Assembly (NCBI GenBank): GCA_965204345.1
Contig: OZ241981.1
Coordinates: 1,664,001-1,728,000 of the forward strand
DNA: 64,000 nt
Direction: 5' to 3'
DNA from: Nitrosopumilus sp.
Lineage (GTDB): Archaea > Thermoproteota > Nitrososphaeria > Nitrososphaerales > Nitrosopumilaceae
Shown here piece by piece: positions 9,185 through 47,337 of this stretch (the first letter of the stretch is position 1; every line of letters begins with the position of its first letter). The notes beneath the pieces were generated by a model. That model saw only the letters and a list, made by a program, of their open reading frames with translations, did no database searches and was not told the DNA's origin. Made by a program: the position numbers and the translations under genes.

Positions 9185-9667
9185 ATGGCTTATTCGAAAA
9201 TATTGCGTAGACTAAGAGAAGAAAAGACCAATTATAGAAAACGTGGCACCATGCTGATGGGCAAGCGTGATTTTATAACTGTAAATATTACTAATGAAAA
9301 TACTCTAGTCCAAATATTAAAACCAGGCATGACTGGAGACAGGGTCGTAGCTTCTGCCCATTCTAGATCTTTACTTGACAAGGGATGGAAGGGTTCTAGA
9401 AAAAGCGTGCCTGCTGCCTATCTTACAGGCTATCTGGCTGGTAAGAAGGCATTGGGCCAAGGTACCAAGGATGCAATTTTGTACACTGGAACAAGACGAT
9501 ATACGCAAAGAATGGCAGCATCTCTGAAAGGAGTTATCGATGCAGGCCTTCAAGTTCCGGCTAATGAAGAAACATTTCCATCCGAGGATAGAATCAACGG
9601 GGAACACCTAACTGTTAAAAATGAAATTTTAAAAATAAAATCTTCCATTGACAATGAGGCCAAATAG
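9185..9667 (+). CDS. rpl18: 50S ribosomal protein L18
   Basis: RRLREEKTNYRKR, PAAYLTGYLAG; operon position. Confidence 0.93.
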   Translation: MAYSKILRRLREEKTNYRKRGTMLMGKRDFITVNITNENTLVQILKPGMTGDRVVASAHSRSLLDKGWKGSRKSVPAAYLTGYLAGKKALGQGTKDAILYTGTRRYTQRMAASLKGVIDAGLQVPANEETFPSEDRINGEHLTVKNEILKIKSSIDNEAK

Positions 9668-9669
9668 AA

Positions 9670-10392: not shown

Positions 10393-10398
10393 TGAAAA

Positions 10399-10866
10399 AT
10401 GGCAAATGCATATCTTGTTGTTAGAATAAAAGGTCAGGCTGATTGTCCTTACTGGGCAACCCATACCATGATGCTCTTGCAGTTGGATAAAAAATATCGT
10501 GCTACTATTCTCCCTGCCAAGGAGAATACCTTGGGAATGCTACGCAAAGTACAGCATTACGTGTCCTGGATTGAGCTTGACTCTTCTTTGGCCAAGGAAC
10601 TAATTGACAAAAAAGCAAGAAAATCCGGCTATCAAAAAATTACTCCTGACGATCTAAAGGCGCTTGGATTTGCAAGTTCTGATGAATTAGCAACAGCTTT
10701 GGCTGATGGCAAAGCAACCTTGTCAAAATTAAAACCGCTAAAACCTTGGTTTGCCTTGGCTCCTCCAATTCATGGCTTTAAACGAAGCACCAAGAAACTT
10801 TATGGACAGAAAGGCATCCTTGGGCAAAATAAGGAGCTTGATACTATTGTAAGGAGAATGATTTAA
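10399..10866 (+). CDS. rpl30: 50S ribosomal protein L30
   Basis: LVVRIKG, GMLRKVQHYVSW, LAPPIHGF; operon position. Confidence 0.93.
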   Translation: MANAYLVVRIKGQADCPYWATHTMMLLQLDKKYRATILPAKENTLGMLRKVQHYVSWIELDSSLAKELIDKKARKSGYQKITPDDLKALGFASSDELATALADGKATLSKLKPLKPWFALAPPIHGFKRSTKKLYGQKGILGQNKELDTIVRRMI

Positions 10867-10867
10867 C

Positions 10868-11293
10868 ATGGCAAGCAGGTTGCGAAAAACTAGACGACTT
10901 AGAGGCGGACGACACATGGGGTGGGGACAGGTAGGTCAACATCGTGCAAGTGGTCATAAGGGCGGTCTAGGAATTACCGGTATGAAGAAACATCACAGAA
11001 GCACTATGATGAAAGAAGATCCAGACCATTATGGTCATGATATCCCTAAAACACCTCACCCAAATATTATAAAAAAATGGGCCAGTCTCCGAGATCTAGA
11101 TGACTTGTTTACAAAGTTCGGTAAAGAAGAAGAAGGAAAGAGGATTGTAGACCTTCAAAGTGCAGGATACGACAAGCTCCTTGGCGGCGGAAAAATAACT
11201 AATGCATATTCCGTCAAGGTTCAGCAATTCACAGCATCTGCAGAAGAAAAACTAAAGGCTGTCGGGGGAGAGGTGTTATCTGATAATGGTTGA
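10868..11293 (+). CDS. rpl15: 50S ribosomal protein L15
   Basis: RKTRRLRG...GWG...HRASGHKGG; KLLGGG; SAEEKLKAVGG. Confidence 0.93.
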   Translation: MASRLRKTRRLRGGRHMGWGQVGQHRASGHKGGLGITGMKKHHRSTMMKEDPDHYGHDIPKTPHPNIIKKWASLRDLDDLFTKFGKEEEGKRIVDLQSAGYDKLLGGGKITNAYSVKVQQFTASAEEKLKAVGGEVLSDNG

Positions 11294-12719
11294 GGGTACA
11301 TTAACTACCACAATTCGAAAAATCGTTTTTAAAGCAGAGCCCTACCTGCCTCAGGTACCAAAACCTAAAAAGAAAATCGCCCTTCAGACCAGATTGCTTT
11401 GGTGTGGTATTGCGCTACTCATTTACATGATAATGGGTCAGACTCCGTTATTTGGGGCCAGCGCACCGGCATTTGACTTTCTTGCGTTTGCAAGGGTTAT
11501 CTTTGCGTCTCAACAGGGCACCCTAGTCGAATTAGGGATTGGGCCGATAGTCACGGCTGGACTTTTGATGCAGCTGTTGAGGGGCTCGGATATTCTCAAA
11601 TTTGATTTTAAGAAACCTGAGGAGAGAGGAATATTTCAAACTGCCACCAAGTTAGTGACCTATGTTGTTATTGTAGCTGAGTCTATTGTATATGCCATAG
11701 CAGTTTATGGTCCTGGCATTGCAGATCCGTACGTTCTATACGTGATGATCGGCCAGCTGATGGCCGCCTCAATTATGATCATGTTCCTAGATGAGCTAAT
11801 TCAGAAGGGCTGGGGTCTGGGAAGTGGGATCAGTCTTTTCATCATGGCCGGTGTAGCCCAGCAGATTCTTTGGAGTATGTTTAGCCCGCTGCCTGCCGGT
11901 GATGGCGGCATGATTGGCATTATTCCGTATATTGCACAGTCTTTGACCGGTGATGGGGATATTGCAAATACCCTCTTCCGTTCCAATCAATTGCCGAGTA
12001 TCTTTGGACTGTGTCTTACTGCAGGAATCTTGCTAATTCTTGTATTTACACAAGGCATGAAGATTGAAATCCCAATAGTCTCTACAAAATACAGAGGCTT
12101 TTCTGCCGTTTATCCAATCAAGCTGATGTATGTTTCTAACATCCCTGTAATCCTAGCTTCTGCATTAACTGCAAATGCCGTGTTTATATTCCAAATGATG
12201 TGGGCAAATCTGAACCCGCGGAATAATGATTTCTTTATGAATTTTATAGCTCAATTTGACCCGACAAGTCCTTCTACGCCTATTGGTGGACTTATTTACT
12301 TTATCACTCCGCCTAGGGGTCTAGATATAGCAGCTCAGGATCCGATGCGGGCAGTGGGATATGTGTTATTTATGATTGGTATTGTGGTCGTATTTGGCAG
12401 ATTGTGGGTTGAGCTTGGCGGTTTATCCCCAAAGAGTGCAGCTCAGAACCTGCTTGATGCAGATGTACAAATTCCCGGATTTAGAAGATCAAACAAACCA
12501 GTTGAGGCAATGCTAAACAAGTACATTCCATCTGTTACGATTATTGGCTCTATGATATTGGGCCTTCTTGCAGGAGTATCTGATGTTCTTGGAGTCTTTG
12601 GTTCTGGAATTGGCGTTTTGCTTATGGTTGATATTCTCATTAACTACTACACACAGCTAGTCAGGGAACAGGTTGAGGTTGCTATGCCGCGTTTAGGTGC
12701 TTTGCTTGGCAGAAAATAA
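11286..12719 (+). CDS. secY: Preprotein translocase subunit SecY
   Basis: Multi-TM; ELGIGPIVTAG, KGWGLGSGISLFI, YPIKLMYVSNIP, QIPGFRR. Confidence 0.97.
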   Translation: MVEGTLTTTIRKIVFKAEPYLPQVPKPKKKIALQTRLLWCGIALLIYMIMGQTPLFGASAPAFDFLAFARVIFASQQGTLVELGIGPIVTAGLLMQLLRGSDILKFDFKKPEERGIFQTATKLVTYVVIVAESIVYAIAVYGPGIADPYVLYVMIGQLMAASIMIMFLDELIQKGWGLGSGISLFIMAGVAQQILWSMFSPLPAGDGGMIGIIPYIAQSLTGDGDIANTLFRSNQLPSIFGLCLTAGILLILVFTQGMKIEIPIVSTKYRGFSAVYPIKLMYVSNIPVILASALTANAVFIFQMMWANLNPRNNDFFMNFIAQFDPTSPSTPIGGLIYFITPPRGLDIAAQDPMRAVGYVLFMIGIVVVFGRLWVELGGLSPKSAAQNLLDADVQIPGFRRSNKPVEAMLNKYIPSVTIIGSMILGLLAGVSDVLGVFGSGIGVLLMVDILINYYTQLVREQVEVAMPRLGALLGRK

Positions 12720-16575: not shown

Positions 16576-16661
16576 TTGTGTGTTTTACTCTATTTATTTA
16601 TCAAAATCAGTAATTTTATTCCTAAACTCCGTCGCTTTGATTCTTTCCTAGTTTATACACT
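16576..16661 (+). repeat. Dispersed ~85-bp non-coding segment (second copy at 61432-61516)
   Basis: Both begin TTGTGTGTTTTACTCTATTT and end TTCTTTCCTAGTTYATACACT. Confidence 0.8.
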
Positions 16662-16976: not shown

Positions 16977-18551
16977 TTACGGATCAGATATCCTTCCCAT
17001 AAACAAAATCGTACCGCTCTCATCATCTTGAATTATAAACAAAAACGGATGATCTGCAATAAATTGTGGAGGTGGAGGTGGTACACTTGTCATCGTCCCA
17101 ATGATACTTGTTACAGCAGCCGCTTCGGTTCCTTCCTCATTTACGTCTATAAACGTGTCCTGTGTTGCAGCACTCACGAATAGATTTCTTAGAGAAATAT
17201 CTGCAATTCCTCCAAGATCGGCCTTTTGTGAACTAAATGCATCTAACATTCCAAGACTCATTAGTGGCCCATTAAGAAAATATTTTTCAGTTATTTGGAA
17301 TTTTGGCATTGATACTTGAACTTGTTGTTTATGCAAGTTCTGCGTCCATTGTTTAATCTGTTCATGAGACATAGAGTCCTCAATCTGTTTTAGGCCATCT
17401 ATATCATCTGGCAAAATTACCAACATAGATATCATGTCGCCTTCGTATGACATTTTTAGTATCTGAGCATCATCTGATTTTGTATAGTTGAATACGCCTA
17501 GCATTCTCATAAAATCTGTATCTACAGAATCCTCGCTATTCTTCCAAAAGGTGGACTTTACGGTGTTCTCCTCAGGAAACTGTGTTGCCCATGTACCCTT
17601 AAAGTATATGGCGTTGTTGATTACCATTTTAGTAAGTTCGTTTACACTAGAAATATCAATTACTTCGTCAATCTTGCCGTTTGTGTTATCTGAGGCCCAC
17701 TGGTTATCTTTTTTACACCGTCACCTGGATCCAAAAAGTTTACCTTTTCTGCGGTGGAATGATATGTCTCTCGTGCCACAGAGGTATAGGAATCATATGG
17801 TTTAAACCAGTCTGCAATCCAAAGTGCGTTTGCCGTATTCAGTTCTATGTGCGGATCATCTCGGTTTATCGATGATATAAAATGTGACACAGAGTTGTGG
17901 CGTGCATCTCTGTCTGGTTCAAATCCAAAGACATCCTGCATTTCTTGTGCTGTGCTTTCTCTGGCACCCTCATACAATATTGAAAATGCCAGATACATGC
18001 TGACAGGTGAAAAGAATATGTTTTTAGGAGTGCCTGATATCTGCCTGTAAAAATCAATTGCAAACTTGTTGTTTGTAGCTGCAATACTGGTATCATCAGT
18101 TGCCTGCATCATTGTGGTACCAGTACCAGCATCATCAGTTGCCTGCATCATTGTGGTACCAGTACCAGTATCATCAGTTGCCTGCATCATTGTGGTGGAA
18201 CCATCATTCATAGCAACGGCATCATCGTCTGTTGAGGTGTTGTCGTTGTTGTTTGATATTGTTACGTTTTTGACATCATCTTTTTGAGATGTTTCTGGTG
18301 GGCATACCGTGGCATAGTCCCTATCTGCTAATTGCATGGCAGAATTACTAGTTACACAAACTGGCTTGTCTGCAGAAGTCACCATCAGAAGCTTGCCATC
18401 ATTGCACTGAATCATATCTATTGGTATGCCTGATTGGTATTGTTCCAATGGCGAGTCAGAGGATACAGCATATGCTGGCATCACCGCCACTATCATCATC
18501 GTCAATACGGTAACCAAAACCAAAAAATCCCGACATTGCAATTCCAGACAT
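16977..18551 (-). pseudogene. Secreted serpin (serine protease inhibitor) with two frameshifts
   Basis: NIFFSPVS, NAIYFKGTW, EEGTEAAAVT hinge, FIADHPFLF, LFMGRISDP. One base is missing near 17703 (adding it restores KKINQWASDNTNGKI); one extra base in the A6 run 18522-18527 disconnects ATG 18551. Confidence 0.88.
18092..18196 (-). repeat. 39-bp tandem repeat (~2.7 copies; TGTGTTMMQATDD) in the serpin linker
   Basis: ATCATCAGTTGCCTGCATCATTGTGGTACCAGTACCAG at 18092 and 18131, partial at 18170. Confidence 0.93.
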
Positions 18552-18611: not shown

Positions 18612-18773
18612 GGTTCTGGCAAATTCCGGTGTTCATGCCATAAATCATAGATTCAGGAATCTGTGGACTGTACTTTGAGATTTTTTGATGACTGGGTAAT
18701 TTTTTTAAGAAAATCATCTCTTGCAATTCGCTTTTAAATTCCAGTGATCAGATCATCAAAACTTGCCAGAATC
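18612..18773. mobile_element. Short IS6-like miniature element (~160 bp)
   Basis: Imperfect terminal inverted repeats GGTTCTGGCAAATT... / ...AACTTGCCAGAATC; last ~38 bp recur inside the 320-bp MITEs; a further end GGTTCTGTCAAGT at 18595. Confidence 0.6.
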
Positions 18774-32868: not shown

Positions 32869-32945
32869 AGATTTTGCTTATTGTTCAATTATTTAATTCA
32901 AAAGAATTTGTCCTAATCATACATATTTAGCCCATACAGTATACC

Positions 32946-33778
32946 ATGGTTATCAAATCACGTTCACTTTTTGAAATTTAAAGAATCAGCCAAATCAGAA
33001 AAAGTACTAAAAAATCAGTGATCATCTAAGGCGTTTTTGCAACTATTACAAAATTTTAGATTCAGACGAGTTGTTGAACTCTGATACCTAAAGGTGCATA
33101 TGATGATTGAATATATGTAATTTATCTCAAAGAACATGATTAGTATTAACTCTGTTCCAATCTACATGACTGGTGTAAGGCATTTTTGCATAATGAACCG
33201 TTTGATGATTCATTGGGATATTGTGAACAAAATGTCCTTGAGAAGACAGAGAGAGCCGGTACATATTTTGGAGGACTGGACATATTCAAAAGATGTTGGA
33301 ATCTGCCTCATCCAAATACCATAGTGGATTAGCTTACTTACTGGCATCAACTAAAAAGGATGCGAATCGAAGTTTTAGATTGTGAATTAACTCTCAAACC
33401 TCTTGGGTTGATATGCAGAATTCTTGCCAGACTATTCCACTTTATCCTGATTTAAGGGACAAACATTGGGCATTTCTTACTCCTAAAGCCTTGCAATCAT
33501 TGAACGAATACTTTGATAAAAGAAAACGTGATCATAAAGTATTTGATCGCAAAACACCTCTATTTAGAATTGTCTATCAGTTAGGAACTGTAAAATCAAA
33601 ACAACTTCACTCAGCAGAAGCAAAAACTGCCGTTTATTGGTTAGTCAACAAAGCTAGTATAGAAATAACTTGTGTTAAAAGACATTTTGATATTTATATG
33701 GATCATGGATTCCGAAAACGGTTTAATAATGAGATATTTGTTATTATGTTGAAAAAGAACTTGATGAATTTAATTTAA
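32946..33778 (+). pseudogene. Degenerate tyrosine integrase
   Basis: Fragments across frames: MVIKSRSL..KESAKSEK; LAST..GMRI (catalytic Arg box); HWAFLTP..PLFR; DHGFRKRFN (HxxR). Many stops and frameshifts; no C-terminal Tyr box seen. Confidence 0.8.
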
Positions 33779-34095
33779 TATGGAGTGGTATACCAATACA
33801 GCAATCTCAAAAACAGGCACAGTAATTTTAGACTAGATTCTGAACTTAATTTCAGGTTATTTTAGATCCAAAATATTCATTCAATCTAAAAGATTTAAAA
33901 TTATTAGCTAGGAAACAAATTTAAAAATAAATGGATTTTAGTAAACTCATTTGGCTAATGCTGATAAACGGTCATGAAAAAACTCGATTTTATTATCTAA
34001 AAAATTCCCCTAACAATATACGAAAAATGAAACTATTTTAAGAAAAATATTGGAAAAACACAAGGTGCTCTCAAAAGACCATGTTATCTCTTGTG

Positions 34096-34259
34096 ATGTT
34101 AATATATTAACATATATAACAGTTATAACTGTTAATAAATTAACATATTTGTAGGTTTGAAAAGACTGAAAATTTTAAATTTTTTTGAAATTTATTTTTT
34201 CAAAAATATGTTAATATATTAACATATATAACAGTTATAACTGTTAATAAATTAACATA
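34096..34259. promoter_or_regulatory. Two identical 52-bp AT-rich multi-palindromic direct repeats (34096-34147, 34208-34259)
   Basis: ATGTTAATATATTAACATATATAACAGTTATAACTGTTAATAAATTAACATA twice; the second ends 3 bp before ATG 34263 and contains TTATAA at -28. Confidence 0.85.
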
Positions 34260-34262
34260 ATT

Positions 34263-35384
34263 ATGAGAACTGATTCAAATTTGAAAAGATCTGAATACCC
34301 TCAAGCATCAATGAGAAGATTGTCGTTAAGACCCCTCTTTCCAACAAAAAACGATATTGGACTTTTTGTTGGACGAGAAAAAGAAATGAATGTAATAGAA
34401 TCTTGTATGCGAAATCGGCTAAATTTGCTTTTGGTTGGAGAAAGAGGAACAGGTAAAACCTCGTTGCTAAATTATACTTATTACAAAACAATAAAAATTG
34501 ATAATGTTGTTGGAGTACTAGTAAACATTCTACCCAAATCTATTTCAGACACATCTAGTTTTCTTAATTTAGTCTTAGATTCCACTTTGGATGAAATAAG
34601 ACATAAGCACTTTGCAGAACAATTTTTTAGCGAATTTGATACTAGACGAACAAATGATGTCTTTATTGCATTTAATTCAATAATCACTATCTTAAAACAA
34701 CATAATGTTGAAGTTGTATTTTTAATTGATGGATTTGATCATCGTGTTGAACTTTGTTACAGAATAATGAGTTCATTACGTGAAGTTTTTTGGCAAACAG
34801 AATTTCCTGTAATTATGACAGGTGATTCAAATAAAATTAATGAATATAGAAGACCTCCATTAGATGCATTTTTTGATAAAAAACTAGAGCCGCAGCCTTT
34901 AAGCTCTGATGAAATAATGAAATTGTTTGAATTAAGACTCGGAAAAAAATATCTAGATAAAACCTCTGCAAATACACTGGCTGAAAGAACCGAATCTAGT
35001 ATAATCGATAAAATTTTGTTAGTGAAAGAATTTTTTGAAAAAAACCCAAAAACTAGAAAAATACTTTTATCTAAACTAGAACCAAAATCTGAAAAAAATA
35101 TGTCTATGGATACTTTAAATCAAAAAACCATTCTCAAAGTGTTTGAATCTTCTTTAGTGCATTTGTCTCCTGCAAAAAAAGAAATTTTACGGTATATTCG
35201 TATTAATGGACCCAGTTCAGCATCAGATAAGGAATTCCAGAAATATATGGGCGTATCTCGTTCCAGATTAACTCAAATGTTATTGTCATTAAGTAAAAAT
35301 GAAATACTGATGAAAAGCAAGGATGCTAAAAAAAGGAAAACTCTATTTGGAATATCTGATGAAATAAAAAGTAGATTTACATGA
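34263..35384 (+). CDS. P-loop/AAA ATPase with C-terminal winged helix-turn-helix
   Basis: FVGREKE, Walker A GERGTGKTS, Walker B FLIDGFD; C-terminal LSPAKKEILRYI..GVSRSRLTQMLLSL wHTH; very AT-rich. Confidence 0.85.
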   Translation: MRTDSNLKRSEYPQASMRRLSLRPLFPTKNDIGLFVGREKEMNVIESCMRNRLNLLLVGERGTGKTSLLNYTYYKTIKIDNVVGVLVNILPKSISDTSSFLNLVLDSTLDEIRHKHFAEQFFSEFDTRRTNDVFIAFNSIITILKQHNVEVVFLIDGFDHRVELCYRIMSSLREVFWQTEFPVIMTGDSNKINEYRRPPLDAFFDKKLEPQPLSSDEIMKLFELRLGKKYLDKTSANTLAERTESSIIDKILLVKEFFEKNPKTRKILLSKLEPKSEKNMSMDTLNQKTILKVFESSLVHLSPAKKEILRYIRINGPSSASDKEFQKYMGVSRSRLTQMLLSLSKNEILMKSKDAKKRKTLFGISDEIKSRFT

Positions 35385-36445
35385 CTAAAAATACCCTATT
35401 GCATGAATTATTGGAAAATGATGCCTTTAAACATACTACTATCCCAATCAATGAACTCCCATATCTTTATGAACCATTTGAAAAAATTTCTAACAAAAAG
35501 ATAGAAACAAAAATAATTAGTAGCATCCAAAAAAATCATGTAATAATCATAAAATCTGATGGTGGTACGGGTAAAACATGTGCTGTAAATTATTCTCTAT
35601 TGCAATTACAGGATGATATTTTTCCAATAGTGCTTAGTCCATTTATGGAAGAAGTTGATGAGGTCTGTAACTCAACAAAAGAATTTACTAGATTTGTTTT
35701 GAATCAAACATTACATGCAGTCAAAAATTTTTCAAATTTGTCAAAAGATACTGAAAAAAAGGTACGTGATGCACTCGCAATTGAAACATCTTTTATAGAA
35801 TCAAAAAAATATAGTATTGGAGGTTCTTTTAGAGCTGCCTTTTCAATTCTTCCATTTATTGCAAAAGTCGAAGCAGGAGTAAAAGCGGATTTAGAAAACT
35901 ATGCCTCTAAAGCAATAAAATCAAAAATATTCAACACTCAACGAATTGAAGCAATACGCGGGTTATGTGAAACAATTGAAGCTCATAATCTAAAACCTGT
36001 TTTCTATATTGATGATACTGACAAATTTTTGAAGAGAGAAGATCTAGATTTATCTAAATTAGTTCCTAAGTTTTTTGGGCAAATTTTGTTAGGACTTATT
36101 AAATTAGACAGACCTCTAATTTTAGCTGCTCATGCATATTATACAAAATCTGCTTCTTACAGAGATGCAGAAAGTAACTATGTTGATCAAGTAATAATCT
36201 TGCCTGAATTAAATAAGACCGGAATAATTTCTTTGATAAATACCAGAATTAAGGCAGTTGATAGTTCTAAAAACATAAAAAATGTTTTTGAAGATAATGC
36301 AATAAAGTCATTAATCAAATATTACAATTCGAAAAAAATTATTAGAAACCTAATGCTTATCTGTCAAGAAAGTATTGATCTTGCTGATTCTCAAGGAACA
36401 AAAGTCAGTAAAAGCATGGTTGATTCGTTTATAGTTGGAAAATAA
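35381..36445 (+). CDS. Second P-loop ATPase, translationally coupled (ATGA overlap)
   Basis: Walker A SDGGTGKT, Walker B FYIDDTDK, IRNLMLIC lid-like segment. Confidence 0.82.
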   Translation: MTKNTLLHELLENDAFKHTTIPINELPYLYEPFEKISNKKIETKIISSIQKNHVIIIKSDGGTGKTCAVNYSLLQLQDDIFPIVLSPFMEEVDEVCNSTKEFTRFVLNQTLHAVKNFSNLSKDTEKKVRDALAIETSFIESKKYSIGGSFRAAFSILPFIAKVEAGVKADLENYASKAIKSKIFNTQRIEAIRGLCETIEAHNLKPVFYIDDTDKFLKREDLDLSKLVPKFFGQILLGLIKLDRPLILAAHAYYTKSASYRDAESNYVDQVIILPELNKTGIISLINTRIKAVDSSKNIKNVFEDNAIKSLIKYYNSKKIIRNLMLICQESIDLADSQGTKVSKSMVDSFIVGK

Positions 36446-36508
36446 AATTAAAACTATTATCAATAAAACATACACTGTTCAATCCTAGTGTCACTTGCCT
36501 GTCTTAAA

Positions 36509-36542
36509 GACACTTAAGAATACGTGACATAGAGTTTTCACT
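36509..36542 (+). repeat. Dispersed 34-bp motif (copy of 16148-16181) at the right edge of the ATPase island
   Basis: 32/34 identity to 16148-16181. Confidence 0.85.
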
Positions 36543-36672
36543 TAAACCGGAGATAAATGACTGGGTTGACAAGATAAACACTCCAGAACATGCCAAGGTA
36601 GGATAAAATTAGTTCGATTTTCCTCACTCTTTAATTCAAAAGTTTTTCACTAAGCCCGCTTTTGATAGTTGT

Positions 36673-37042: not shown

Positions 37043-37362
37043 TGGTCTGTTGCGTTCATGAGGATAGACACGAATCTGTTTGATCGCACAAGTTTTAATC
37101 AAGACCTACAAACGACACTGGTAAATTCCAGTGATCAGATCATCGAAACTTACCAGAATTGTCCGTTGCATTTACCGTGTTCATCTTAAAATCATCAAGA
37201 TTTGCTTTGATGTGGTTGTTTTCTCTAGTTCCTTGATCAATATCGGAGAAATAATCTCAATACACTAAATGAACATCAGTTTGAAAATCAGAAAACGCCC
37301 TAAGATTCAACAATGTCCCAAATTTATCTCTCGTGCCTATCCCTCATAAACGCAACAGAATC
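37043..37362 (+). mobile_element. IS6-like MITE, copy 1 (~320 bp)
   Basis: ~32-bp TIRs (TCTGTTGCGTTCATGAGG..CACGA / TCGTG..CCTCATAAACGCAACAGAATC); ~95% identical to the reverse complement of 47379-47699; no transposase ORF. Confidence 0.9.
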
Positions 37363-37369
37363 GCCATAC

Positions 37370-39556
37370 TTGAATTTAAAACTTACATTACCGATCATTG
37401 TTTTTGCACTAGTACTTTTATTCGTGTATCCCTTAGAGTCTATATCCCAAACTGATGAGAATGAACAGTTTACAGTGCCAGACAATCTTATCCCAGATGA
37501 CAGTACATTAGGTCCTGTTGCAAACGTGGATGTACCATCCAAGTTTGATGGCGGCTTTTATGACAAAATCCTGGGTCTCATATCTGAGGTACCTCAGGAT
37601 GGTGACTATGGGGTACATGACGGCACGCGATACTATGATGTCCTAATTATAGTGGCCAGAGGCGATGGGGACGATGGCATAGATGCAGATGAGACAGCAC
37701 GCGAGAACAAGTATGCAATTGCAGAGAAACTTGATCTTCTTGGCGCACGCAACATAGCATCTGCAGAGTCACTCTCATTTGTAACTGCATCTATCCCAGT
37801 TGCAGATGTTCCGGGGCTCTCACTTTATGACGAGATATATGCCATGGGAGATGGTGAAATTCCCGTGACTCTGGAGATTGATACGGTTAGGGGAACCGTA
37901 CATGCAACTCCAAACGAGATTAATACTGCAACTGATACCAATCTTGATGGCAGTGGAGTTGTTGTGGCAATCATTGACAGAGGCATCAACCACGATATTG
38001 CATTTAACGACAGAATCATTGACCGTGTAGAGTGCGATGATACGTGTGAGCCTGCAACTGCTGCCAGTGTGATCGGCGTTAATAGTAATAATGATCTTTC
38101 TACTGCTTTTGCATCCCATGGTACGCATATAGCCCAAGTCCTTGCCGCATCAGGACTCCCAGCTCATAACGGCATTGCGCCCGGTGTGGAACTTTTGGAT
38201 GCCTCAATTACTAGGCATACTGTTGATAACGATAAGAATCGTACTTTCGTTAATGCAAACAGAAATGACGTGGCACATGCCCTTGACTGGTCTCTCAAAA
38301 AAGGAGCCGACATGGCAGTCATGAGTTTTGGTTTTGGAATCTGCAATGGAGATTATGGAAAGACAACCAACCTCATCACAAATGAGGCAGTTGACAAGGG
38401 AATGGTTCTAGTATCATCTGCAGGAAACAGGGGCATAATTTATGGAGCGCCAAACCAGCCAGTTTATCAGTCTATAACTCATCCCGGATGCGGACACAAT
38501 GAAATTACCGTAGGCGGAATAAATGATCGTGGTGAAACAATATCAAAGGCAAGCTTTGCAAGCAGGGGTCCAGCACCCGGAACAGTCATGCTAAAGCCCG
38601 AGATAGTTGCACCTGCACAGCGTCTTCAGACACTGGACAATGTTGCAGAAGATGACAATTTTAGTCCTCGGTCCGGAACCAGCCTTGCTGCTCCCCAGGT
38701 AAGTGCAACTGCTGCCCTGTTGCTACAGGCAAAACCTGATCTGACTCCAGTTGAGATAAAGACCATACTTCTTCTTGGGGCTGACTGGCAGGGTCCAATC
38801 CCTTGCACGTCTGTACAATATGAAACAAACAATCCCAACGACAACTGTTCTTATGCCAGACAGCCATCTAACACTGTTGAGAGAAACAATTCTGAATCCC
38901 TTCAAATACTAAACAATGTGGGCTTTGGCATACTAAACACTGGAGAGTCACTTAGGTATGTTCACAGTGAATCATCATCATCATCTCATGTAATGTCAGA
39001 TCATCTCAAGTCAGATACGCATACAAAGCAGTATGAGTTTACAGTACAGGACACATCAAAACCAGTCAAAGTGATACTGTCATGGCTAGTTCATCCCCAT
39101 GGCAGTATAACCGGACAGTTGGGTCATACTGATACAGCAGTTCCTATTGCGAACCTAGATTTTACAATAACTACTCCAAATAATGCTACAATACGGGCAA
39201 CATCAGACCATCAGACAAACGAGTTTGCAGTGTTTGCCCCCACTCGCACCGGAACATACACCATAACACTTAGCGGCTCAGACATTGGTGACATAAACAA
39301 GTCGGTACAAAACTTTGCGCTGGCAAGTACCAACCCTCTTACACTTGTAGGTGACAGTATACTAGATAGAAAAATAGAGAGACACATCTCTACACAAACC
39401 AGAATTACAGATATCGCAGAAGATATTAAACAGTTAGAGCAAAAATTACAGGATAAAAAAGACAAGATAGAAGAACTAGACTCGTTACTTTCTGAGATTT
39501 ATCTACAAATTATAGAGTTGGCCCCTGTTGGTTACGAACTTCCATTCAAGGATTGA
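37370..39556 (+). CDS. Secreted S8 subtilase with C-terminal beta domain and coiled-coil tail
   Basis: Signal peptide from TTG 37370 (the ORF-track start lies inside the MITE); IIDRGI, SHGTHIA, SAGN, GTSLAAPQV. Confidence 0.88.
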   Translation: MNLKLTLPIIVFALVLLFVYPLESISQTDENEQFTVPDNLIPDDSTLGPVANVDVPSKFDGGFYDKILGLISEVPQDGDYGVHDGTRYYDVLIIVARGDGDDGIDADETARENKYAIAEKLDLLGARNIASAESLSFVTASIPVADVPGLSLYDEIYAMGDGEIPVTLEIDTVRGTVHATPNEINTATDTNLDGSGVVVAIIDRGINHDIAFNDRIIDRVECDDTCEPATAASVIGVNSNNDLSTAFASHGTHIAQVLAASGLPAHNGIAPGVELLDASITRHTVDNDKNRTFVNANRNDVAHALDWSLKKGADMAVMSFGFGICNGDYGKTTNLITNEAVDKGMVLVSSAGNRGIIYGAPNQPVYQSITHPGCGHNEITVGGINDRGETISKASFASRGPAPGTVMLKPEIVAPAQRLQTLDNVAEDDNFSPRSGTSLAAPQVSATAALLLQAKPDLTPVEIKTILLLGADWQGPIPCTSVQYETNNPNDNCSYARQPSNTVERNNSESLQILNNVGFGILNTGESLRYVHSESSSSSHVMSDHLKSDTHTKQYEFTVQDTSKPVKVILSWLVHPHGSITGQLGHTDTAVPIANLDFTITTPNNATIRATSDHQTNEFAVFAPTRTGTYTITLSGSDIGDINKSVQNFALASTNPLTLVGDSILDRKIERHISTQTRITDIAEDIKQLEQKLQDKKDKIEELDSLLSEIYLQIIELAPVGYELPFKD

Positions 39557-40569: not shown

Positions 40570-43500
40570 CTATGCAAATCCAAACAGGGATCTAAAAAAG
40601 TCTGTAATTACATCAAAGAAACCCTTTTGATCCTCGGAGATTCTCTGCGAATCTGCAGGCACACACTCTCCGCCTACCATCTGCGTTCCTGAGCTGCATG
40701 ATGACCCTTGATCATTACCAGTACCTGTGCCGGTTTGGGATGGTTCTGAATCGGTCACAGTCGTTGTCGACTTTATCTCTGTTTCTGCGGTTGGTTCTCC
40801 TGAGTCTGTCTTTTCACTCAAATCCGGTACCGGAGGTTCTGGCTTCATCCCTGTTTCTGCGGATGGTTCTGGGTCCATCTTTTTCATTCCTTCTTCTTCC
40901 TTCTCCTCCTCCCCCTCATTCAAACCTGGCACTTGTGGTTCTGGGTCCATTAGATTCTGGACTGCTCCAACCTGGGTATTGTTTGCAGGTATGCTTTGTT
41001 CTGGGGAATACTTGCCACTGCTTCCTCCACCACCGCCACCACCGCCACCACCGCCACCACCACTGCGGCTACTAGAAGGTGTGGATGGTGTAGGTTCTAC
41101 AGAAACCATAGAGAATGAGCCAAATGAGCTAAAGTGCGTGGTCCAGATGATCATATCAGGGCCGGCACGAACAAAACATGATTCCAATGTGGTGTCAGCA
41201 CCAATATTGTCATTGGCAGTATCCTGATTGACAGGAACAAACGGACATACAACCAGTGATCGTGATATCACATTGCCATCAGCATCGTTTCCTGAGAAGA
41301 AGGCACCCTCATGGCCTGCCTGGTCAGGCAAGAGTAACCTGACTGCCTGATCAAATGTTAATCTAGTGTTACCATCACCGACCGAGAATGCCAGTCCTAT
41401 CTCATCATTTGAGGTTGGAGGATCAACCGCAGTACCGGTAGTAGTAACAAGGGTTGGAACGGCAATGGTGCCACTCCAATCATCAGATGAGCCAGTTACA
41501 ACGACACTAGCTGGATAAGTGACAGTGACAGTTTGGGAATCAGAGACCTCAGAGGTGACCTCAGTTGTAGAATCAGAAATTCTCACACTCTTTGTTCCGC
41601 TTGCAGCATCATCAGCAAACGTTGGGGTGGCATTAAAGTCAAGCAGCTGGCCATCAGTGGCAATAATTGTGTCAGGTAATGTATCAGATACCACATTAAG
41701 GGTGATCAGATTTGAGGATGGCTCATATGTCACTACGCCACCATCGCCTCCAGAGGGAATATCGGCCTCAATTTCATCTCCTGTGGTGCTGATGGTGATG
41801 GTAACTGAATTAGATGCCTCATTGGGGTTGCCTGCAAGGTCTGCTGCCATACCTGCACCTATTGATACGGTTACTGTTCCGTCAGATGAGCCGCGAGCCA
41901 CATTAAAGGTGTAGACACTGCCTTCTCCGCCAATGTTGGATGCTGTCGGGGTACCACCGTTTACAGTACCAGTTACTGTAATGTCATCTAGATCAAAGTT
42001 CTCAATCTCCTCATCAAATGTTGTTGTAAACGTTACGGGGTCATCGCCAGTAATAGTACCATTGGCAGGCGTGATAGATACGGATGGGTTTACCATGTCC
42101 ACTGTAATAGTATGTACAGCACCCGTGTTGCCCCCTGCCACCACACCATCAGGTATGCTTACTGTAAGCTGACCCTCTCCAGTGATCCCGTGTATGACTG
42201 TAAAGTCGTATTGTGCACCACTGGTTCCATTAAAGTCAGTTATCAGGATATCTGGTGCCTGTGTCCTGCCAATTTCCACAACGACGGAATTTTCCCCTCC
42301 AAGATCAAGACTAATCTCAGAGTTAGATACCTGGGTTCCGTCAATTGCCACAACGATGTCAGACCGCTCAAATCCTGTGACATTGCCGCTAAATGTCGCA
42401 GTAAATGGGATGGCCTCAGAGTTGGTAGGATCAGATGTATCAGTACTCAGGGATACGGATGGGACAGTGGTGTCTATTCTAACGGTAACTGAATTAGATG
42501 CGGTGTTGGGGTTGCCTACAACATCTGCTGCCACTCCTGTTGCAACTGATACAGTTACGGTTCCATCAGATGATATACTTGCAACATCAAAGATGTATGT
42601 GCGGGCATCAACTGTCTCAAAGCCGGTTGCTTCAAGGATGCCGCCGTTGGCATCGCCTGCCACTGTAATGTCATCTACGATAAAGTCCCTAACGTCCTCG
42701 TCAAATTCTACTGTAAATGGTACCGTATCAAGTCCGGTGCTGCTGCCTGCAGACGAACTTACAGAGACAGTTGGGGCAAGGGTGTCTATGGTAACTGTAA
42801 CTGAATTTGACGCGGTGTTGGGGTTGTCTGCTGCATCTGTTAGCGCGTTTGCATCTATGGTTACGGTCACTGTTCCGTCTGTGGAGCCGCGTGCCACATC
42901 AAAGGTGTGGACACTGCCTGCTCCGCCAAGGTTGGATGCTATGGGACTGCCGTTATTTGCTGTACCCGTTACTGTAATGGCACCTAGACCAAAGTCGACA
43001 TCCTTGTTGAATGTTACCGTAAATGGTACCGTAGTTAGGTTGGTGCTCTCACCTGCAGTTGTAGTTACAGAGACGGTTAGGGGAATGGTGTCGGGATTGT
43101 CTGGAGGGTCTGTTGGATCTACATCTCTGACAGTAACTATCTGTGTAAGAGTTGCGGTATTTCCTGAATCATCAGTGGCAGTCCATACCACACTGTGTGT
43201 TCCAACGGCAAATGATGCAGTATCACTGGCAGTTACAGCAACAACGTCTGAATCCACTATATCAGTTGCAGCTGGCGCGCTTATTGATACGGGTGTAAGT
43301 TCTGCTGTGGCATCCACAGTTATTGGTGCAGGCTGTACTATTGTGGGAGGAGTGGTATCCTCCAGAGTTACAGTGCTAGTTGTTGTAGAGATATTTCCAG
43401 ATTCGTCAGTGGCAGTCCATACGATTATGGTATCACCCAGAGGAAACGATGCAGTTGCGTTGCTAGTTATGGTAAAAGGAAAGATATCTGTTACTGTGGG

Positions 43501-46500
43501 GTCTGCCAGCTGTATTGCAGTTAATGATGAGGTAGCCTCTGCTGTAACATTTTCAGGCTTTTGTATTACCGGTGGTGTTGTGTCTTGTACGGTTATCGTC
43601 TGTGCTGCAGTATCTGCGTTTCCTGCAGCATCTGTGGCAGTCCATGTAACTGTTGTGGAGCCAAGTGGGAAATTGTCTGGTGGTACGTCGTGAGTTATGT
43701 CAGGGCTTGGATCTGCATTGTCTGTAGCTGATGCCGTACCAGTATCAACAGGTGTACGAATGCCGGTAGCCTCTACAGTGAGATCAGCAGGAGCTGTAAT
43801 TACAGGTCTTGTGGTATCTGGAGGGTCAGGATTGTCGTCGCCGTCGTCACTAGTTATAAAAACATGAAACAACCCACTACCAAATATGCCAGATGTCGCA
43901 ATTATGCGAACAGGATAAGTGCCAACGGTGGCGTTATGCGGAGAGATGGTAATGTCTGCCGTACCACTACCAGTACGGGATATGCTGACAAAATCTGGGG
44001 CTTGTTCGAAATGCCACGAAATTGGTCTATTGTTGGGATGCGTTGCAGACACGCTTACAGTACGGGTCTCTCCGTTACGCAAAGTGATATCATCAATGGA
44101 TTCTATTACCGGAAATATACTTGGGATGAAGTTTGTGGTGGATGTGGGGCGTGACTGTGAATCACTTCCACCAAAGCCAAAATCAGAACCAACATAGGTT
44201 ACTGTAATTGGTGTATCATATGGAATGCCTGATGTCCTCAAAAACCTTGTGTCAGGGCTCCTCAAAATATTAGTGACCGAGGTGACTGTTCCATCAGACA
44301 GACTAAAATCACTTGATGTAAAATTAGTATAAAATTCTACAGGGAACTGTAGAATAATGGTGAAGGTAGTTGTCAATTCGGATGTAAATGTTAATGGTAG
44401 TGGTGAGATGTTAAAATTATCAATCTCTACGAATTCATTGTCTCTGTTTGAGTCTGCCACAAATCGCAGTAATGTCTGTGATTGATCACGTAGGTTAAGT
44501 GTCAGGGCTTCAGAGTGCCAGTTGTCGGTATTATTCCCATTGATACGAGTATATCGTTCCAGTGTTCTCCAGCTGAAATCTTCCAGATACTGCACATACA
44601 GACCTTCATCTGAGTTAATTCTCCTATCAACAAATCTATCAAAGGACACTACAAGTGGGTTTCCTGTGTCTATTGGCTGGTTAAGTCTAATAACACACTG
44701 GAAATCACAGTCTCTAGATGTTGCCACCGTATTGCCGCTAGCAGAACCTGGAATGGTTTTGTGGGCATTTTTTATCTCCCACACGCCATTGCCAGATTGG
44801 CTCCAATTATCAAGCGTGTTAAAACTGTCAGTCATTATGTTTGATGACGGGGGTGGATCGTTTGGGATTGCAAAGATCATGTGGTGAAGTATCATAATGT
44901 CATGTGAAGAATCATTGTCTGTACCTTCCCATGCAGTATAGAAATCTCCAAAACTACGGTATGGTCTATTCTTAAATACATCAATAATTTCATCATCGCC
45001 TAATTGCAGGTTATCTAAGTTAGTACCGTTACTGCTTTGTTCTAAATTGTCAAATATTTCATCAACGTTATGATCTTTGATATCCCATAGCGCTCCGGCT
45101 ACCTGTCCTTGAACTAATTGTCCAACAAGATGAACGTTATCTACTGGGAAAAAAGCTAAAAATCTATCATCATCAGGGAAGGACTCTAACCTGTCTTGCT
45201 CCAAATCAATACTACTAAAAGTGTCACGTTGGAAATTTGACGAATTGGTAACTAAATGAGGAACAAAATTAGCCCAACCTTCTGTCCATGCACATCTAGG
45301 ATTAGTTGGGAGATGAAGATAATGACCTCTCTCACCGACATCATCAAAATCGCCATCATTGTTTATATCAGTGTAACAAGGCTGACGCAGGAGTGGAAAT
45401 ACACCTTGTATATCCATAATATGGTGGCCAAATTCATGTAATATGATAAGTTTGCTTAAAGCCTGATCACTGGCAGAAGATCTCTCACCGTCAAGCCACA
45501 TAATGTTGGCTGATCGTAAATATGCAGCACCGTTACTGGCACTGTCTGGAAAAACACTAGCACCACTATCAGGCTCCCACTTTACAGTAAGCCTCTCAGG
45601 AGAAATACCGTGATGACTAAATAAATCACGACCATCAGAGATCGCATTGATTATACCGGCAGCTCTTGCATTACTGCCATTCAATACAAAATCAAACATT
45701 CTTGTATCCTGACTAAAGTTCAAAACTCTGGTAGATGATTCTGTATAAACACGTTGAGATAAACCTTCCACAACTAAATCACTTGCGCCCTTGGAACTAA
45801 CTCTGATAACTAGATCAACATTTGATGCATCAGAAGGATCATCATTTTGGATAGAATCTATGTGATATCCTCCCATGTTGGATGTAAATGTGCAGGCCCT
45901 GCTATTGTCAGTTGTAAACAATACGGTCTCTGTACCGTCAGATTCAGGATAATCATAGGCACAGACTTCTATCCCATTGATGGGTTCTGTGTTGTTGGAA
46001 AAATAAATTGGAGCAGATACAGAGCCTGTAATGGAAAAGGTGTTGGAAGAAGAGTCTTCTGCTGTTGCTGCTGCACCATCAGACGTCTCCTGAGTTGTAT
46101 CTACGGGGAATGCTGGGGCAGCAGCGGTATCTGTGGAGGAGCCGGTTGCCGCTGCTGTTACTGCACCATCAGATGTGTCATGAGGGCCAGTGTAATCTGC
46201 CTCGTATCTTTCCATTGCATCATCTACTTCCGCCTGCGTGAAATTAGAGTGACTCAAAATACTTTTTACATCATCCAATGGAAGAGATTTATCAACAAGC
46301 CATCCAATTAAATCATCATTAACTTTGCCAATATCATTGACAGCTATCTCGCCCAAAAGTTGCAGATGGTTGGCATATATTTCAGCTACTCTTTCCTCCG
46401 TCAAAATCTCATTAACTATCTCATCTTTGGGTCCTGGTTTATTGCCAAGTCTGCTATCTTTTTGAGGTGCAAAAGATTCAGGACTAGATGCACTAGCTAA

Positions 46501-47337
46501 AATGTCGTGATCCAAAAACGTGTATCCCTCATCCATATACTCATTTTCGGGCATAGAATGCTCATCAGATATTGCAAGGTAGACACCGCCACTGGATTCT
46601 AAAGGATCAAAGCGCAATGCATCAATTTCAATAAATCCCTCCTCTAGAATTTCTATAGTAACCATCACGGTATAAGCCCTGTCCGGCACGGGATCATCTA
46701 CTACATATCCGACATTATTATCAAATGACTCAAAGCTGGTTGGATCATCAGAGCCCGCATTTGTTGTGGCATCATCATGAAACAAAACTTTGTCATCGGG
46801 ATTGGTAAATACTTTTAGTGTGAATGGTTCCATGTATGGTTCAAAATTTATATTGTCAGTATAGACACCGGTAAAATTTACCAAGGCAGTCTGACCCACC
46901 TTGGGCAATTCTGAGAGTTCTAAAGAATAACTGTGTATAAGAATTCCCGACGATGATAACATTGAAGATTCTTTGTAATCAGCAATAATCTGCTTTTCTT
47001 TGTCAGTAAATACATGCGTGTCTGTCTGGCTTGTGATCTTTTTATTTAAGGACTCGTGAGCTTTTTGGGATGTTTCTGGTGTATATGCCGTCATGGTATA
47101 GCTGCTGCTGCCCCTGTCTACTAATTTCATCGCAGAATCACCAGTTAGGCAAACTGGCTTGCCTGCAAGAGTCACCATCAGAATCTTGCCGTCATTGCAC
47201 TGAATCATGTCCATTGGTATGCCTGCATGATGCTGGTCCAGTGGCGAGTCCGGGATTGCAGCATGTGTTGGCATCATCACTGCCACCATCATCACGGTAA
47301 CCAAAACCAAAAGTTTCGACACTGCGATTCCGGCCAT
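40570..47337 (-). CDS. Giant secreted/surface protein: Zn metalloprotease + MAM-like + HYR x3 + Ig-like x4 + C-terminal anchor region
   Basis: Signal peptide; ILHEFGHH...AWTEGWANF; DTTPPVI..P..TVEAT (HYR); FTVTF..V..F...DITV (bacterial Ig-like); poly-Gly linker; amphipathic GFFDVITDFFRSLFG tail. Confidence 0.85.
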   Translation of the reverse strand: MAGIAVSKLLVLVTVMMVAVMMPTHAAIPDSPLDQHHAGIPMDMIQCNDGKILMVTLAGKPVCLTGDSAMKLVDRGSSSYTMTAYTPETSQKAHESLNKKITSQTDTHVFTDKEKQIIADYKESSMLSSSGILIHSYSLELSELPKVGQTALVNFTGVYTDNINFEPYMEPFTLKVFTNPDDKVLFHDDATTNAGSDDPTSFESFDNNVGYVVDDPVPDRAYTVMVTIEILEEGFIEIDALRFDPLESSGGVYLAISDEHSMPENEYMDEGYTFLDHDILASASSPESFAPQKDSRLGNKPGPKDEIVNEILTEERVAEIYANHLQLLGEIAVNDIGKVNDDLIGWLVDKSLPLDDVKSILSHSNFTQAEVDDAMERYEADYTGPHDTSDGAVTAAATGSSTDTAAAPAFPVDTTQETSDGAAATAEDSSSNTFSITGSVSAPIYFSNNTEPINGIEVCAYDYPESDGTETVLFTTDNSRACTFTSNMGGYHIDSIQNDDPSDASNVDLVIRVSSKGASDLVVEGLSQRVYTESSTRVLNFSQDTRMFDFVLNGSNARAAGIINAISDGRDLFSHHGISPERLTVKWEPDSGASVFPDSASNGAAYLRSANIMWLDGERSSASDQALSKLIILHEFGHHIMDIQGVFPLLRQPCYTDINNDGDFDDVGERGHYLHLPTNPRCAWTEGWANFVPHLVTNSSNFQRDTFSSIDLEQDRLESFPDDDRFLAFFPVDNVHLVGQLVQGQVAGALWDIKDHNVDEIFDNLEQSSNGTNLDNLQLGDDEIIDVFKNRPYRSFGDFYTAWEGTDNDSSHDIMILHHMIFAIPNDPPPSSNIMTDSFNTLDNWSQSGNGVWEIKNAHKTIPGSASGNTVATSRDCDFQCVIRLNQPIDTGNPLVVSFDRFVDRRINSDEGLYVQYLEDFSWRTLERYTRINGNNTDNWHSEALTLNLRDQSQTLLRFVADSNRDNEFVEIDNFNISPLPLTFTSELTTTFTIILQFPVEFYTNFTSSDFSLSDGTVTSVTNILRSPDTRFLRTSGIPYDTPITVTYVGSDFGFGGSDSQSRPTSTTNFIPSIFPVIESIDDITLRNGETRTVSVSATHPNNRPISWHFEQAPDFVSISRTGSGTADITISPHNATVGTYPVRIIATSGIFGSGLFHVFITSDDGDDNPDPPDTTRPVITAPADLTVEATGIRTPVDTGTASATDNADPSPDITHDVPPDNFPLGSTTVTWTATDAAGNADTAAQTITVQDTTPPVIQKPENVTAEATSSLTAIQLADPTVTDIFPFTITSNATASFPLGDTIIVWTATDESGNISTTTSTVTLEDTTPPTIVQPAPITVDATAELTPVSISAPAATDIVDSDVVAVTASDTASFAVGTHSVVWTATDDSGNTATLTQIVTVRDVDPTDPPDNPDTIPLTVSVTTTAGESTNLTTVPFTVTFNKDVDFGLGAITVTGTANNGSPIASNLGGAGSVHTFDVARGSTDGTVTVTIDANALTDAADNPNTASNSVTVTIDTLAPTVSVSSSAGSSTGLDTVPFTVEFDEDVRDFIVDDITVAGDANGGILEATGFETVDARTYIFDVASISSDGTVTVSVATGVAADVVGNPNTASNSVTVRIDTTVPSVSLSTDTSDPTNSEAIPFTATFSGNVTGFERSDIVVAIDGTQVSNSEISLDLGGENSVVVEIGRTQAPDILITDFNGTSGAQYDFTVIHGITGEGQLTVSIPDGVVAGGNTGAVHTITVDMVNPSVSITPANGTITGDDPVTFTTTFDEEIENFDLDDITVTGTVNGGTPTASNIGGEGSVYTFNVARGSSDGTVTVSIGAGMAADLAGNPNEASNSVTITISTTGDEIEADIPSGGDGGVVTYEPSSNLITLNVVSDTLPDTIIATDGQLLDFNATPTFADDAASGTKSVRISDSTTEVTSEVSDSQTVTVTYPASVVVTGSSDDWSGTIAVPTLVTTTGTAVDPPTSNDEIGLAFSVGDGNTRLTFDQAVRLLLPDQAGHEGAFFSGNDADGNVISRSLVVCPFVPVNQDTANDNIGADTTLESCFVRAGPDMIIWTTHFSSFGSFSMVSVEPTPSTPSSSRSGGGGGGGGGGGGGSSGKYSPEQSIPANNTQVGAVQNLMDPEPQVPGLNEGEEEKEEEGMKKMDPEPSAETGMKPEPPVPDLSEKTDSGEPTAETEIKSTTTVTDSEPSQTGTGTGNDQGSSCSSGTQMVGGECVPADSQRISEDQKGFFDVITDFFRSLFGFA

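Follow-up and report, generated by a model that had tools for sequence, protein, structure and literature searches.

Operons that join two ATPases of the Orc/Cdc6 clade, one of them eroded, have been described before. The nSTAND2 system, as outlined in the relevant passages of Kaur et al. 2021 (PMC8195603), is a mobile two-gene operon both products of which are STAND/Orc-Cdc6-clade nucleoside triphosphatases (NTPases). One of the two has eroded NTP-binding motifs, and the pair is predicted to form a hetero-multimer. In the same outline both proteins carry a winged helix-turn-helix (wHTH) domain, and the inactive one is encoded second and usually fused to TPRs and a HEPN or GT4 domain. The hosts in 15 rows of the supplement are Proteobacteria and Deltaproteobacteria. 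In passages of Rakesh et al. 2024 (PMC10853773), an Orc/CDC6 gene is found together with a second copy whose Walker B is disrupted and with a KAP NTPase; NACHT, TIR or pentapeptide domains are often attached to the active Orc/CDC6 copy of such neighbourhoods. Here we analyse a pair of genes, open reading frames ORF1 and ORF2, that lies behind two identical 52-bp units in a stretch of 64,000 nucleotides of Nitrosopumilus sp. (contig OZ241981.1, positions 1,664,001 to 1,728,000). We call this whole stretch the window. The cassette is an effector-less, operator-controlled variant of the paired Orc/Cdc6-STAND ATPase operons, and it is by description that the known systems are set apart from it.

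Like nSTAND2 as described in those passages, the cassette has two STAND-type NTPase genes in an operon, one of them eroded. Unlike in nSTAND2, the eroded copy comes first, the wHTH is found on the eroded copy only, and there is no effector. The TPR plus HEPN/GT4 fusion is missing too: ORF1 goes no further than the wHTH, and the chain of ORF2 stops at the lid. The hosts, too, are different (mainly Actinomycetota), and the operator is conserved. The R. fascians accessions of the pair are absent from the 13 supplementary files of PMC8195603 that were searched. With the pairs of Rakesh et al. the cassette shares a copy with an intact Walker A and a disrupted Walker B (ORF1); judged by description only, it differs from the arrangement in those passages by having no conserved third gene and no KAP match among 56 gene-2 proteins. 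Passages of bioRxiv 10.64898/2026.10.19.760177 and of PMC6563490 mention no comparable pair; PMC6563490 reports that some thaumarchaeal elements carry Cdc6/Orc1 homologues. Narrow phrase searches of the open-access literature found no description of the gene pair. An earlier note on this DNA, made from the sequence alone, could not place the pair in any named system, and Pfam, NCBIfam, PADLOC and PHROGs gave no assignment either.

A predicted operator over the promoter

Our comparison points to a conserved operator through which ORF1 would control its own operon. The parts of the cassette are listed here by their positions in the window.

34096..34147, no strand: auxiliary operator unit, the upstream one of the two; its 29-bp core of four boxes spans 34107-34135 around the centre 34121 and is flanked by an outer box at either end
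34148..34207, no strand: AT-rich spacer of 60 bp, 15% guanine plus cytosine (GC), without significant fold
34208..34259, no strand: promoter-proximal operator unit; core at 34219-34247 (TTAAC-atat-ATAAC-a-GTTAT-aact-GTTAA), centre 34233; covers the TATA-like TTATAA at 34235-34240
34263..35384, + strand: ORF1, 373 residues; Orc1/Cdc6-clade AAA+ module with a C-terminal MarR/TrmB-like wHTH; predicted autorepressor
35381..36445, + strand: ORF2, 354 residues; Orc1/Cdc6-clade AAA+ ATPase without a wHTH, coupled to ORF1 by ATGA

The two 52-bp units are exact copies at an offset of 112 bp, as the earlier note had it, and the 60-bp spacer between them is unique. The only other exact repeat of at least 50 bp in the window is a Pro/Thr coding repeat (7.7-7.9 kb). 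Each unit had been divided into three adjoining or overlapping dyads. All three are present: two of them (34096-34113 and 34117-34134) have perfect arms of 9 bp, and the third (34130-34145) has one mismatch. The unit, however, forms a single larger dyad, in which 42 of 49 positions are symmetric around the centre (34121 or 34233). Matches to the 18-mer dyad with at most three mismatches number four, compared with 0.02 expected, and the unit folds into a 21-bp hairpin (z-score -5.4; equally stable shuffles, 0 of 200). The functional unit is best read as a 29-bp predicted dyad of four boxes and not as three separate palindromes. In the window one extra box is added on each side of the four-box core at the same 9-bp pitch, giving six boxes.

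The dyad centre lies 30 nucleotides 5' of the ORF1 ATG, over the TTATAA at -28 to -23. This is about where the TATA box of a leaderless archaeal gene is expected. Hence, from its position, TTATAA is probably the TATA box of a leaderless ORF1, which is what the earlier note had suggested. There is no Rfam match between 31000 and 40500 and no tRNA in the window. A sigma-70 promoter scan of the window stayed at chance level (15 vs 17.6), as expected because the host is archaeal.

How far the operator is conserved can be seen in the bacterial homologues. After dereplication, 72 upstream regions remained; the dyad geometry was chosen after viewing these data, and the controls share that geometry. 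At least eight of the ten box pairs are complementary in 48 of the 72 promoters, as compared with 5.7% of 2803 random windows and 1.4% of shuffles. With a matrix made from the 72 promoters, 59 score above both controls when each is left out in turn. This matrix contains bacterial sequences only, and it ranks 34107-34135 and 34219-34247 at the top of the window (17.7, next 13.1). The 41 best-registered bacterial sites yield the matrix CTAAC-nAAA-CTTAC-n-GTAAG-TTTn-GTTAG, under which both copies in the window score 17.9 (next 10.7), a value reached by none of 300 shuffles of AT-rich intergenic sequence. The 29-bp operator core of the family is CTAAC-N4-CTTAC-W-GTAAG-N4-GTTAG.

The dyad centre is found 13-19 nucleotides 5' of the start in 37 of 41 bacterial loci. 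TANNNT precedes the start by 4-10 nucleotides in 38 of these loci, as compared with 61 of 357 other genes, and a Shine-Dalgarno-like word occurs in only one (120 of 357 control genes). These positions, together with the rarity of Shine-Dalgarno-like words, suggest that the bacterial operator overlaps the -10 box of a leaderless gene. Autoregulation, one of the proposals of the earlier note, is well supported since the predicted operator overlaps the -10 box in bacteria and the TATA-like box in the window. The palindromic site lies on the promoter in most homologues, and by this comparison ORF1 very probably uses the boxes to repress its own operon. To judge from the archaeal copy, a single operator-repressor pair may be able to serve bacterial as well as archaeal promoters.

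Palindrome arrays had also been expected upstream of the homologues. Most of them do have a promoter dyad, but the twin arrangement is a minority feature, and most loci have a single operator site. A second operator lies 60-62 bp upstream in L006 and its relatives L008 and L010, and also in L028. In L026, L032, L038, L017 and L073, a lineage-matched second operator is found 10-19 bp 3' of the gene-2 stop. A downstream site with a score of at least 8 occurs at 6 of 61 loci but at none of 669 control gene ends; that of L003, among the six, is unrelated. A sequence in L003 (~10146-10172, ~110 bp 3' of gene 2) may be a Xer dif-like site. Beyond the auxiliary copies that hug the cassette, no further strong operator was found in the window or within ~8 kb of the bacterial loci.

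The recognition helix of ORF1 may go with the type of box. All 22 loci with Gln at the position of ORF1 residue 334 have GC-type boxes, and of the 49 other classified loci 41 have AC-type boxes (2 more are unclassified). A pairing of this Gln with GC-type boxes is suggestive only.

Two ATPases and their family

Gene 1 had been described as an ATPase with a C-terminal wHTH, similar to Orc1/Cdc6, and gene 2 as a different ATPase with no obvious effector, coupled to gene 1 by ATGA. The structural models give both proteins Orc1/Cdc6-like folds. The ORF1 model (140 sequences, predicted local distance difference test, pLDDT, 88.5) matches Cdc6/Orc1 best (2qby_A, Z 17.1, 306 aligned residues, root-mean-square deviation (rmsd) 10.1 across domains), followed by TnsC (Z 15.1), MalT NOD (Z 14.8, rmsd 4.1, 227 aligned) and MuB (Z 14.8). 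SSO1545 (Z 13.2) and PAB2304 (Z 14.2) are both below Cdc6/Orc1. The ORF2 model is weaker (7 sequences, pLDDT 71) and does not resolve the insert. Its best match is again Cdc6/Orc1 (Z 16.9, rmsd 3.3, 246 aligned), with the chain ending at the lid, and TnsC (Z 13.9) and MuB (Z 13.6) are found as well. Foldseek, run on this model, put HslU at the top rank. RdrA scores Z 11.7 as compared with 16.9 for Cdc6, a lower rank that is compatible with kinship. We rejected the possibility that ORF2 is a KAP NTPase, as PF07693 is not among the families that match the 56 gene-2 proteins (E 0.001). Feature-based look-alikes of ORF2 include KAP-labelled clusters, a lead only.

The two families are homologous across the AAA+ module (probability 98.6). 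In ORF1, Walker A is intact, Walker B reads D156-G157 and the sensor-2 Arg is replaced by I248. Among 161 gene-1 sequences, 70% keep the Walker A Lys (17% have Arg), 42% the second acid of Walker B and 90% the sensor-2 Arg, where the window ORF1 has Ile; Arg173 and Trp177 are invariant. All 56 gene-2 sequences keep the Walker A Lys, the two acids of Walker B and the Arg of sensor 2. ORF2 itself has a large insert ahead of Walker B, intact Walker A, Walker B and sensor 2, and no extra domain. Because of these differences in conservation, gene 1 appears to be catalytically eroded and gene 2 intact.

Sequence profiles have little to say about the pair. Neither protein reaches a curated Pfam or NCBIfam cut-off. 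PF01637 (archaeal ATPase_2, STAND-like) scores 31.4 bits against a gathering threshold of 33.2, over the N-terminal half only, and TIGR02928 gives ORF1 13.4 bits, where its cut-off is 181.3, and does not match ORF2. In PADLOC-DB 2.0, ORF1 has weak HTH/P-loop matches only (best E 6e-4) and ORF2 has none at E 1. PHROGs returned nothing specific for either protein, and searches of PDB sequences returned P-loop-level matches only. Predictions of the ORF1+ORF2 complex scored 0.52, 0.25 and 0.05, with the median below the 0.32 mark and the controls not folded, and we use them as evidence neither for nor against a complex.

Homologues are numerous. A profile built from 15 gene-1 proteins matches 789 clusters at E 1e-10 and, at the stricter E<=1e-30, still 474. 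The first atlas clusters matched by ORF1 and ORF2 have 231 and 232 members, commonest in Actinomycetota. The closest relatives are 41-51% identical; for two of them (P0002 and P0017) the longest listed contig has 5862 bases. We scanned genomes with the pattern [LM]xPP[AVL]DAFF[DE], which the window ORF1 does not fit. The best 80 of 118 confirmed loci, together with the plasmid locus L001, make up 82 gene-1 copies. All scan loci with a stated lineage are bacterial, nearly all from Actinomycetota, in addition to three Ca. Multivorans genomes. The family is mainly actinobacterial, not archaeal.

The two genes co-occur, a point that the earlier note had put up for checking. Gene 2 or pieces of it follow 76 of the 82 gene-1 copies (61 intact, 12 broken, 3 cut by the contig end), and it is absent or a stub behind the other 6. 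The reading frames overlap by ATGA or GTGA in 46 of the 61 intact pairs, as they do in the window (ATGA). Pairwise identities of gene 1 and gene 2 co-vary (Pearson 0.94, Spearman 0.59, 46 loci). A simple gene finder detected no conserved third gene among 1160 neighbour genes.

Some loci show what can become of gene 2. In L036 a NYN RNase gene (8998-9663; PF01936; PADLOC HEC-09, E 1e-39) occupies the gene-2 slot, with an 11-nucleotide overlap and the same start sequence as gene 2 of the sister locus L019. Gene 1 of L079 is followed by a short ORF and then HicA, and only a 5' stub of gene 2 is left in L004, L020 and L022 (supported by tblastn in L022, by eye in L004 and L020). L071 has two adjacent cassettes of different lineages (7557-11530), the first with an internally deleted gene 2, beside IS66 and a ThiF-like gene. 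The Ca. Multivorans copies L006, L008 and L010, two of the three with a broken gene 2, group with copies from Acidimicrobiia (SH-aLRT 96), which suggests transfer between phyla.

Fusions are rare. No longer fused form of gene 2 was found among 7998 scored candidates and no TPR, HEPN or GT4 fusion among gene-2 relatives of 654-2000 residues, although both results are weak evidence. P0164 is a fusion of gene 1 and gene 2 of 687 residues that has lost the wing, possibly a frameshift read-through. Five gene-1 proteins (P0083, P0085, P0112, P0130 and P0155) have unrelated C-terminal additions, DUF2188 in P0155 and, by eye, an EAL-like one in P0130. Beside the pair in L030 (3716-4921) and L029 (1-1293) there is a third AAA-type gene with a weak match to the gene-1 profile, which is not conserved elsewhere.

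A proposed conflict module and its rivals

Type II and IV toxin-antitoxin operons with a wHTH autorepressor, such as AbiE, consist of coupled genes, the DNA-binding gene first, with a palindromic operator over their own promoter. The cassette resembles the type II systems in its coupled two-gene operon with a predicted operator over its own promoter. It also shares with type II and IV systems the scattered insertion and the retention of the regulator after loss of the second gene. Unlike in toxin-antitoxin systems, both partners are AAA+ ATPases of ~340 residues and neither has a known toxin fold. We put the chances at about even that the cassette is a horizontally acquired, self-contained two-gene conflict module, toxin-antitoxin-like and effector-less, with ORF2 as its output.

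Such a module could work as follows. ORF1 would bind the four-box dyad with several wHTH domains, oligomerizing through its AAA+ module. Sitting on the -10 box in bacteria, and on the TATA box in the window, it would keep the leaderless operon repressed. Where there is a further operator, 60-112 bp upstream or a little past the end of gene 2, looping or larger assemblies may make repression tighter. The catalytically eroded ORF1 would then join the co-translated, intact ORF2 in an ORC-like heteromer and restrain it. We have moderate confidence that ORF1 and ORF2 act together in this way, because the pair is co-translated, co-diverging and homologous; eukaryotic ORC likewise mixes active and eroded subunits. 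An invader signal, foreign DNA or the loss of ORF1 would release ORF2, and repression would be lifted too. The output would be the ATP-driven DNA assembly or the ATP turnover of the released ORF2, leading to growth arrest or to the blocking of an incoming element. That the cassette is a switch for defence or of a toxin-antitoxin-like kind, with ORF2 as its output, seems to us as probable as its opposite.

In favour of a conflict module we count the conservation of the pair with its co-varying identities, the operator, the catalytic asymmetry, the 6 loci that retain gene 1 without gene 2 (with the NYN RNase of L036 among them), the defence genes that flank a minority of loci, and the intact pair on a low-GC island in the window. 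Several observations weigh against it. Neither protein has an effector domain or a meaningful PADLOC match. The replacement of gene 2 by a NYN gene is a single event, and bias affects the surplus of broken gene-2 copies, several of which come from long-read metagenome-assembled genomes. As the genome scan was anchored on gene 1, a lone gene 2 is invisible to it and losses of gene 2 are not comparable with losses of gene 1. Most of the annotated proteins among 197 nearest neighbours searched against Pfam are metabolic or housekeeping, and the number of defence neighbours comes without a background control. As for the operator, 24 of the 72 promoter regions have fewer than 8 box pairs, that is, about a third are without a strong dyad in the four-box geometry. 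One Solirubrobacterales clade has a different box spacing. The covariation of helix and operator comprises 4 changes on the tree with 1 well-supported independent pair, and is not significant after phylogenetic correction.

One could also argue that the pair is a two-subunit, ATP-switched transcription regulator of the MalT-type, STAND-like kind, with ORF2 sensing a cue and remodelling the ORF1 repressor, and that distant host genes are controlled. The clear operator, the autoregulation, the mostly housekeeping neighbours, the lack of an effector domain and the fold match to MalT NOD are all in keeping with this. However, MalT-type regulators have a C-terminal repeat sensor domain, whereas the proteins here stop at the lid and the wHTH. 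No target gene is conserved, and no strong operator other than those of the cassette lies in the window or in the ~8 kb around the bacterial loci. Patchy insertion and frequent decay would also be unusual for a useful global regulator. We think that such a regulator is unlikely. We are slightly more sceptical of a selfish, non-autonomous mobile cassette, with TnsC/MuB/IstB-like ATPases, end-binding sites and a recombinase supplied in trans, or of an addiction module that stabilizes an island. TnsC, MuB and IstB belong to the same AAA+ clade, both folds match TnsC and MuB, and ORF2 ends at the lid like ShCAST TnsC and MuB. The second operators just past the gene-2 stop, the variable insertion sites, the double copy in L071, the integrases at L033, L069 and L078 and a 13-bp terminal repeat on the window island would fit as well. 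Yet 55 of 61 loci have no downstream site. Unlike the ATPases of Tn7, Mu and IS21, the pair has no conserved transposase partner (insertion sequence (IS) and integrase genes are sporadic only) and instead a predicted sequence-specific wHTH partner. Gene 1 is found on a single plasmid (2 of 72,556 records) and in 0 of 50,697 phage records.

The earlier note also considered the pair to be the initiator, and the repeats the origin, of a former element. In this reading the element is integrative, and an ORC-like heteromer would bind two arrays that flank an AT-rich unwinding element. ORF1 has the initiator-clade AAA+ fold and C-terminal wHTH of archaeal Orc1/Cdc6, the best fold match of both proteins is Cdc6/Orc1, and the pair sits in a bounded island. 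Two sites around a spacer of 15% GC beside a Cdc6-like gene do recall archaeal origins. The proposal is not supported: one operator on the promoter suffices in most homologues, and hardly any plasmid and no phage among the records searched carries a member of the family. In addition, TIGR02928 is far below its cut-off, the wHTH-bearing ORF1 is without the catalytic Glu of an intact Walker B (DE) and without the sensor-2 Arg, and ORF2 has no wHTH. The four-box dyad covers a promoter, helicase, primase and other replication genes are not conserved nearby, and the hosts are mostly bacteria with a different replisome. An initiator with its origin is very improbable. Another explanation concerns only the twinning and not the system, namely that the second 52-bp unit arose as a recent neutral duplicate or through an error of assembly, so that only one operator matters. 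In its favour, even those spacer positions at which homologues differ are the same in both copies, and the twin sites of L028 and L006 differ between the boxes. Against this stand the different flanks, the unique 60-bp spacer and the second operators that recur in other bacterial lineages, all of which make an assembly artefact unlikely, and we hold this explanation of the twinning to be very unlikely as a whole.

To return to the conflict module, the family is unnamed and comprises several hundred two-gene cassettes with a precise predicted binding site, which makes DNA binding, autoregulation, toxicity and defence directly testable. If ORF2 is the output, the cassette would be a conflict system made of two Orc/Cdc6-type ATPases only, with no enzyme effector, and also a simple model for heteromers of active and eroded AAA+ subunits such as ORC. 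A bolder version, which we regard as tentative and somewhat doubtful, is that of a prokaryotic mini-ORC acting as an effector-free immune or addiction switch. A heteromer of an eroded wHTH subunit and an active wHTH-less subunit would repress itself, the released ATPase would be toxic or would block the invader, and the cassette would have crossed between bacteria and archaea, its operator shifting in register so as to lie over the TATA box instead of the -10 box.

The island and its neighbours

The cassette in the window lies on an island of 3.75 kb (32892-36642) with 29% GC, as compared with 40% for the window. GC at third codon positions is 0.19 in ORF1 and 0.18 in ORF2, against 0.37-0.42 in four host genes. 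A 13-bp direct repeat marks both borders; this length was reached in 2 of 400 shuffles of regions that had been picked after the repeat was seen. When the island is excised in silico, 66 bp, a divergent promoter region, are left between a geranylgeranyl-reductase-like gene and pth2. Besides the cassette the island holds the following.

32892..32904, + strand: left 13-bp direct repeat, the longest substring that the two border regions have in common; it lies within the promoter region of the geranylgeranyl-reductase-like gene and is a candidate for an att site or a target duplication
32940..33790, + strand: decayed, multiply interrupted reading frame, the sole other content of the island apart from the cassette
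36630..36642, + strand: right copy of the 13-bp direct repeat, 5' of pth2

The island contains no nuclease or methylase gene, as the earlier note had remarked. The decayed frame may resemble a thaumarchaeal tyrosine integrase; Pfam, NCBIfam, PHROGs, PDB sequences, phages, plasmids and a 4-sequence integrase hidden Markov model gave no confirming match. A 14-bp inverted match between 33819-33832 and the 3' end of pth2 was set aside as likely chance by a rough estimate.

At the bacterial loci, 268 of ~366 further candidates within ~6 kb were scanned with PADLOC (E 1e-8 and 1e-20). Of 71 loci, roughly a dozen have clear defence genes nearby, including these.

L011: type I restriction-modification
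L004: methyltransferase
L059, L077: CBASS
L075: Wadjet II
L055: type IV restriction endonuclease
L049, L023, L058: PDC-S04, PDC-S35 and PDC-S39 candidates, respectively

Toxin-antitoxin, IS and integrase genes flank some other loci.

The gene content of the window is archaeal (ribosomal proteins, Cdc48, PTH2, the geranylgeranyl-reductase-like gene). Two shorter exact repeats join distant intergenic regions, one of 23 bp (18735-18757 and 37122-37144) and one of 20 bp (16576-16595 and 61432-61451), possibly remnants of a small dispersed element. Coding tandem repeats are found at 7650-8000, in the Pro/Thr/Glu linker of an FtsY-like gene, and at 18090-18200, in a secreted-looking protein. To the right of pth2 there is a large secreted-looking ORF of 747 residues (37313-39556), putatively subtilase-like by its motifs, and then a repeat-rich surface protein of 2255 residues (40570-47337).

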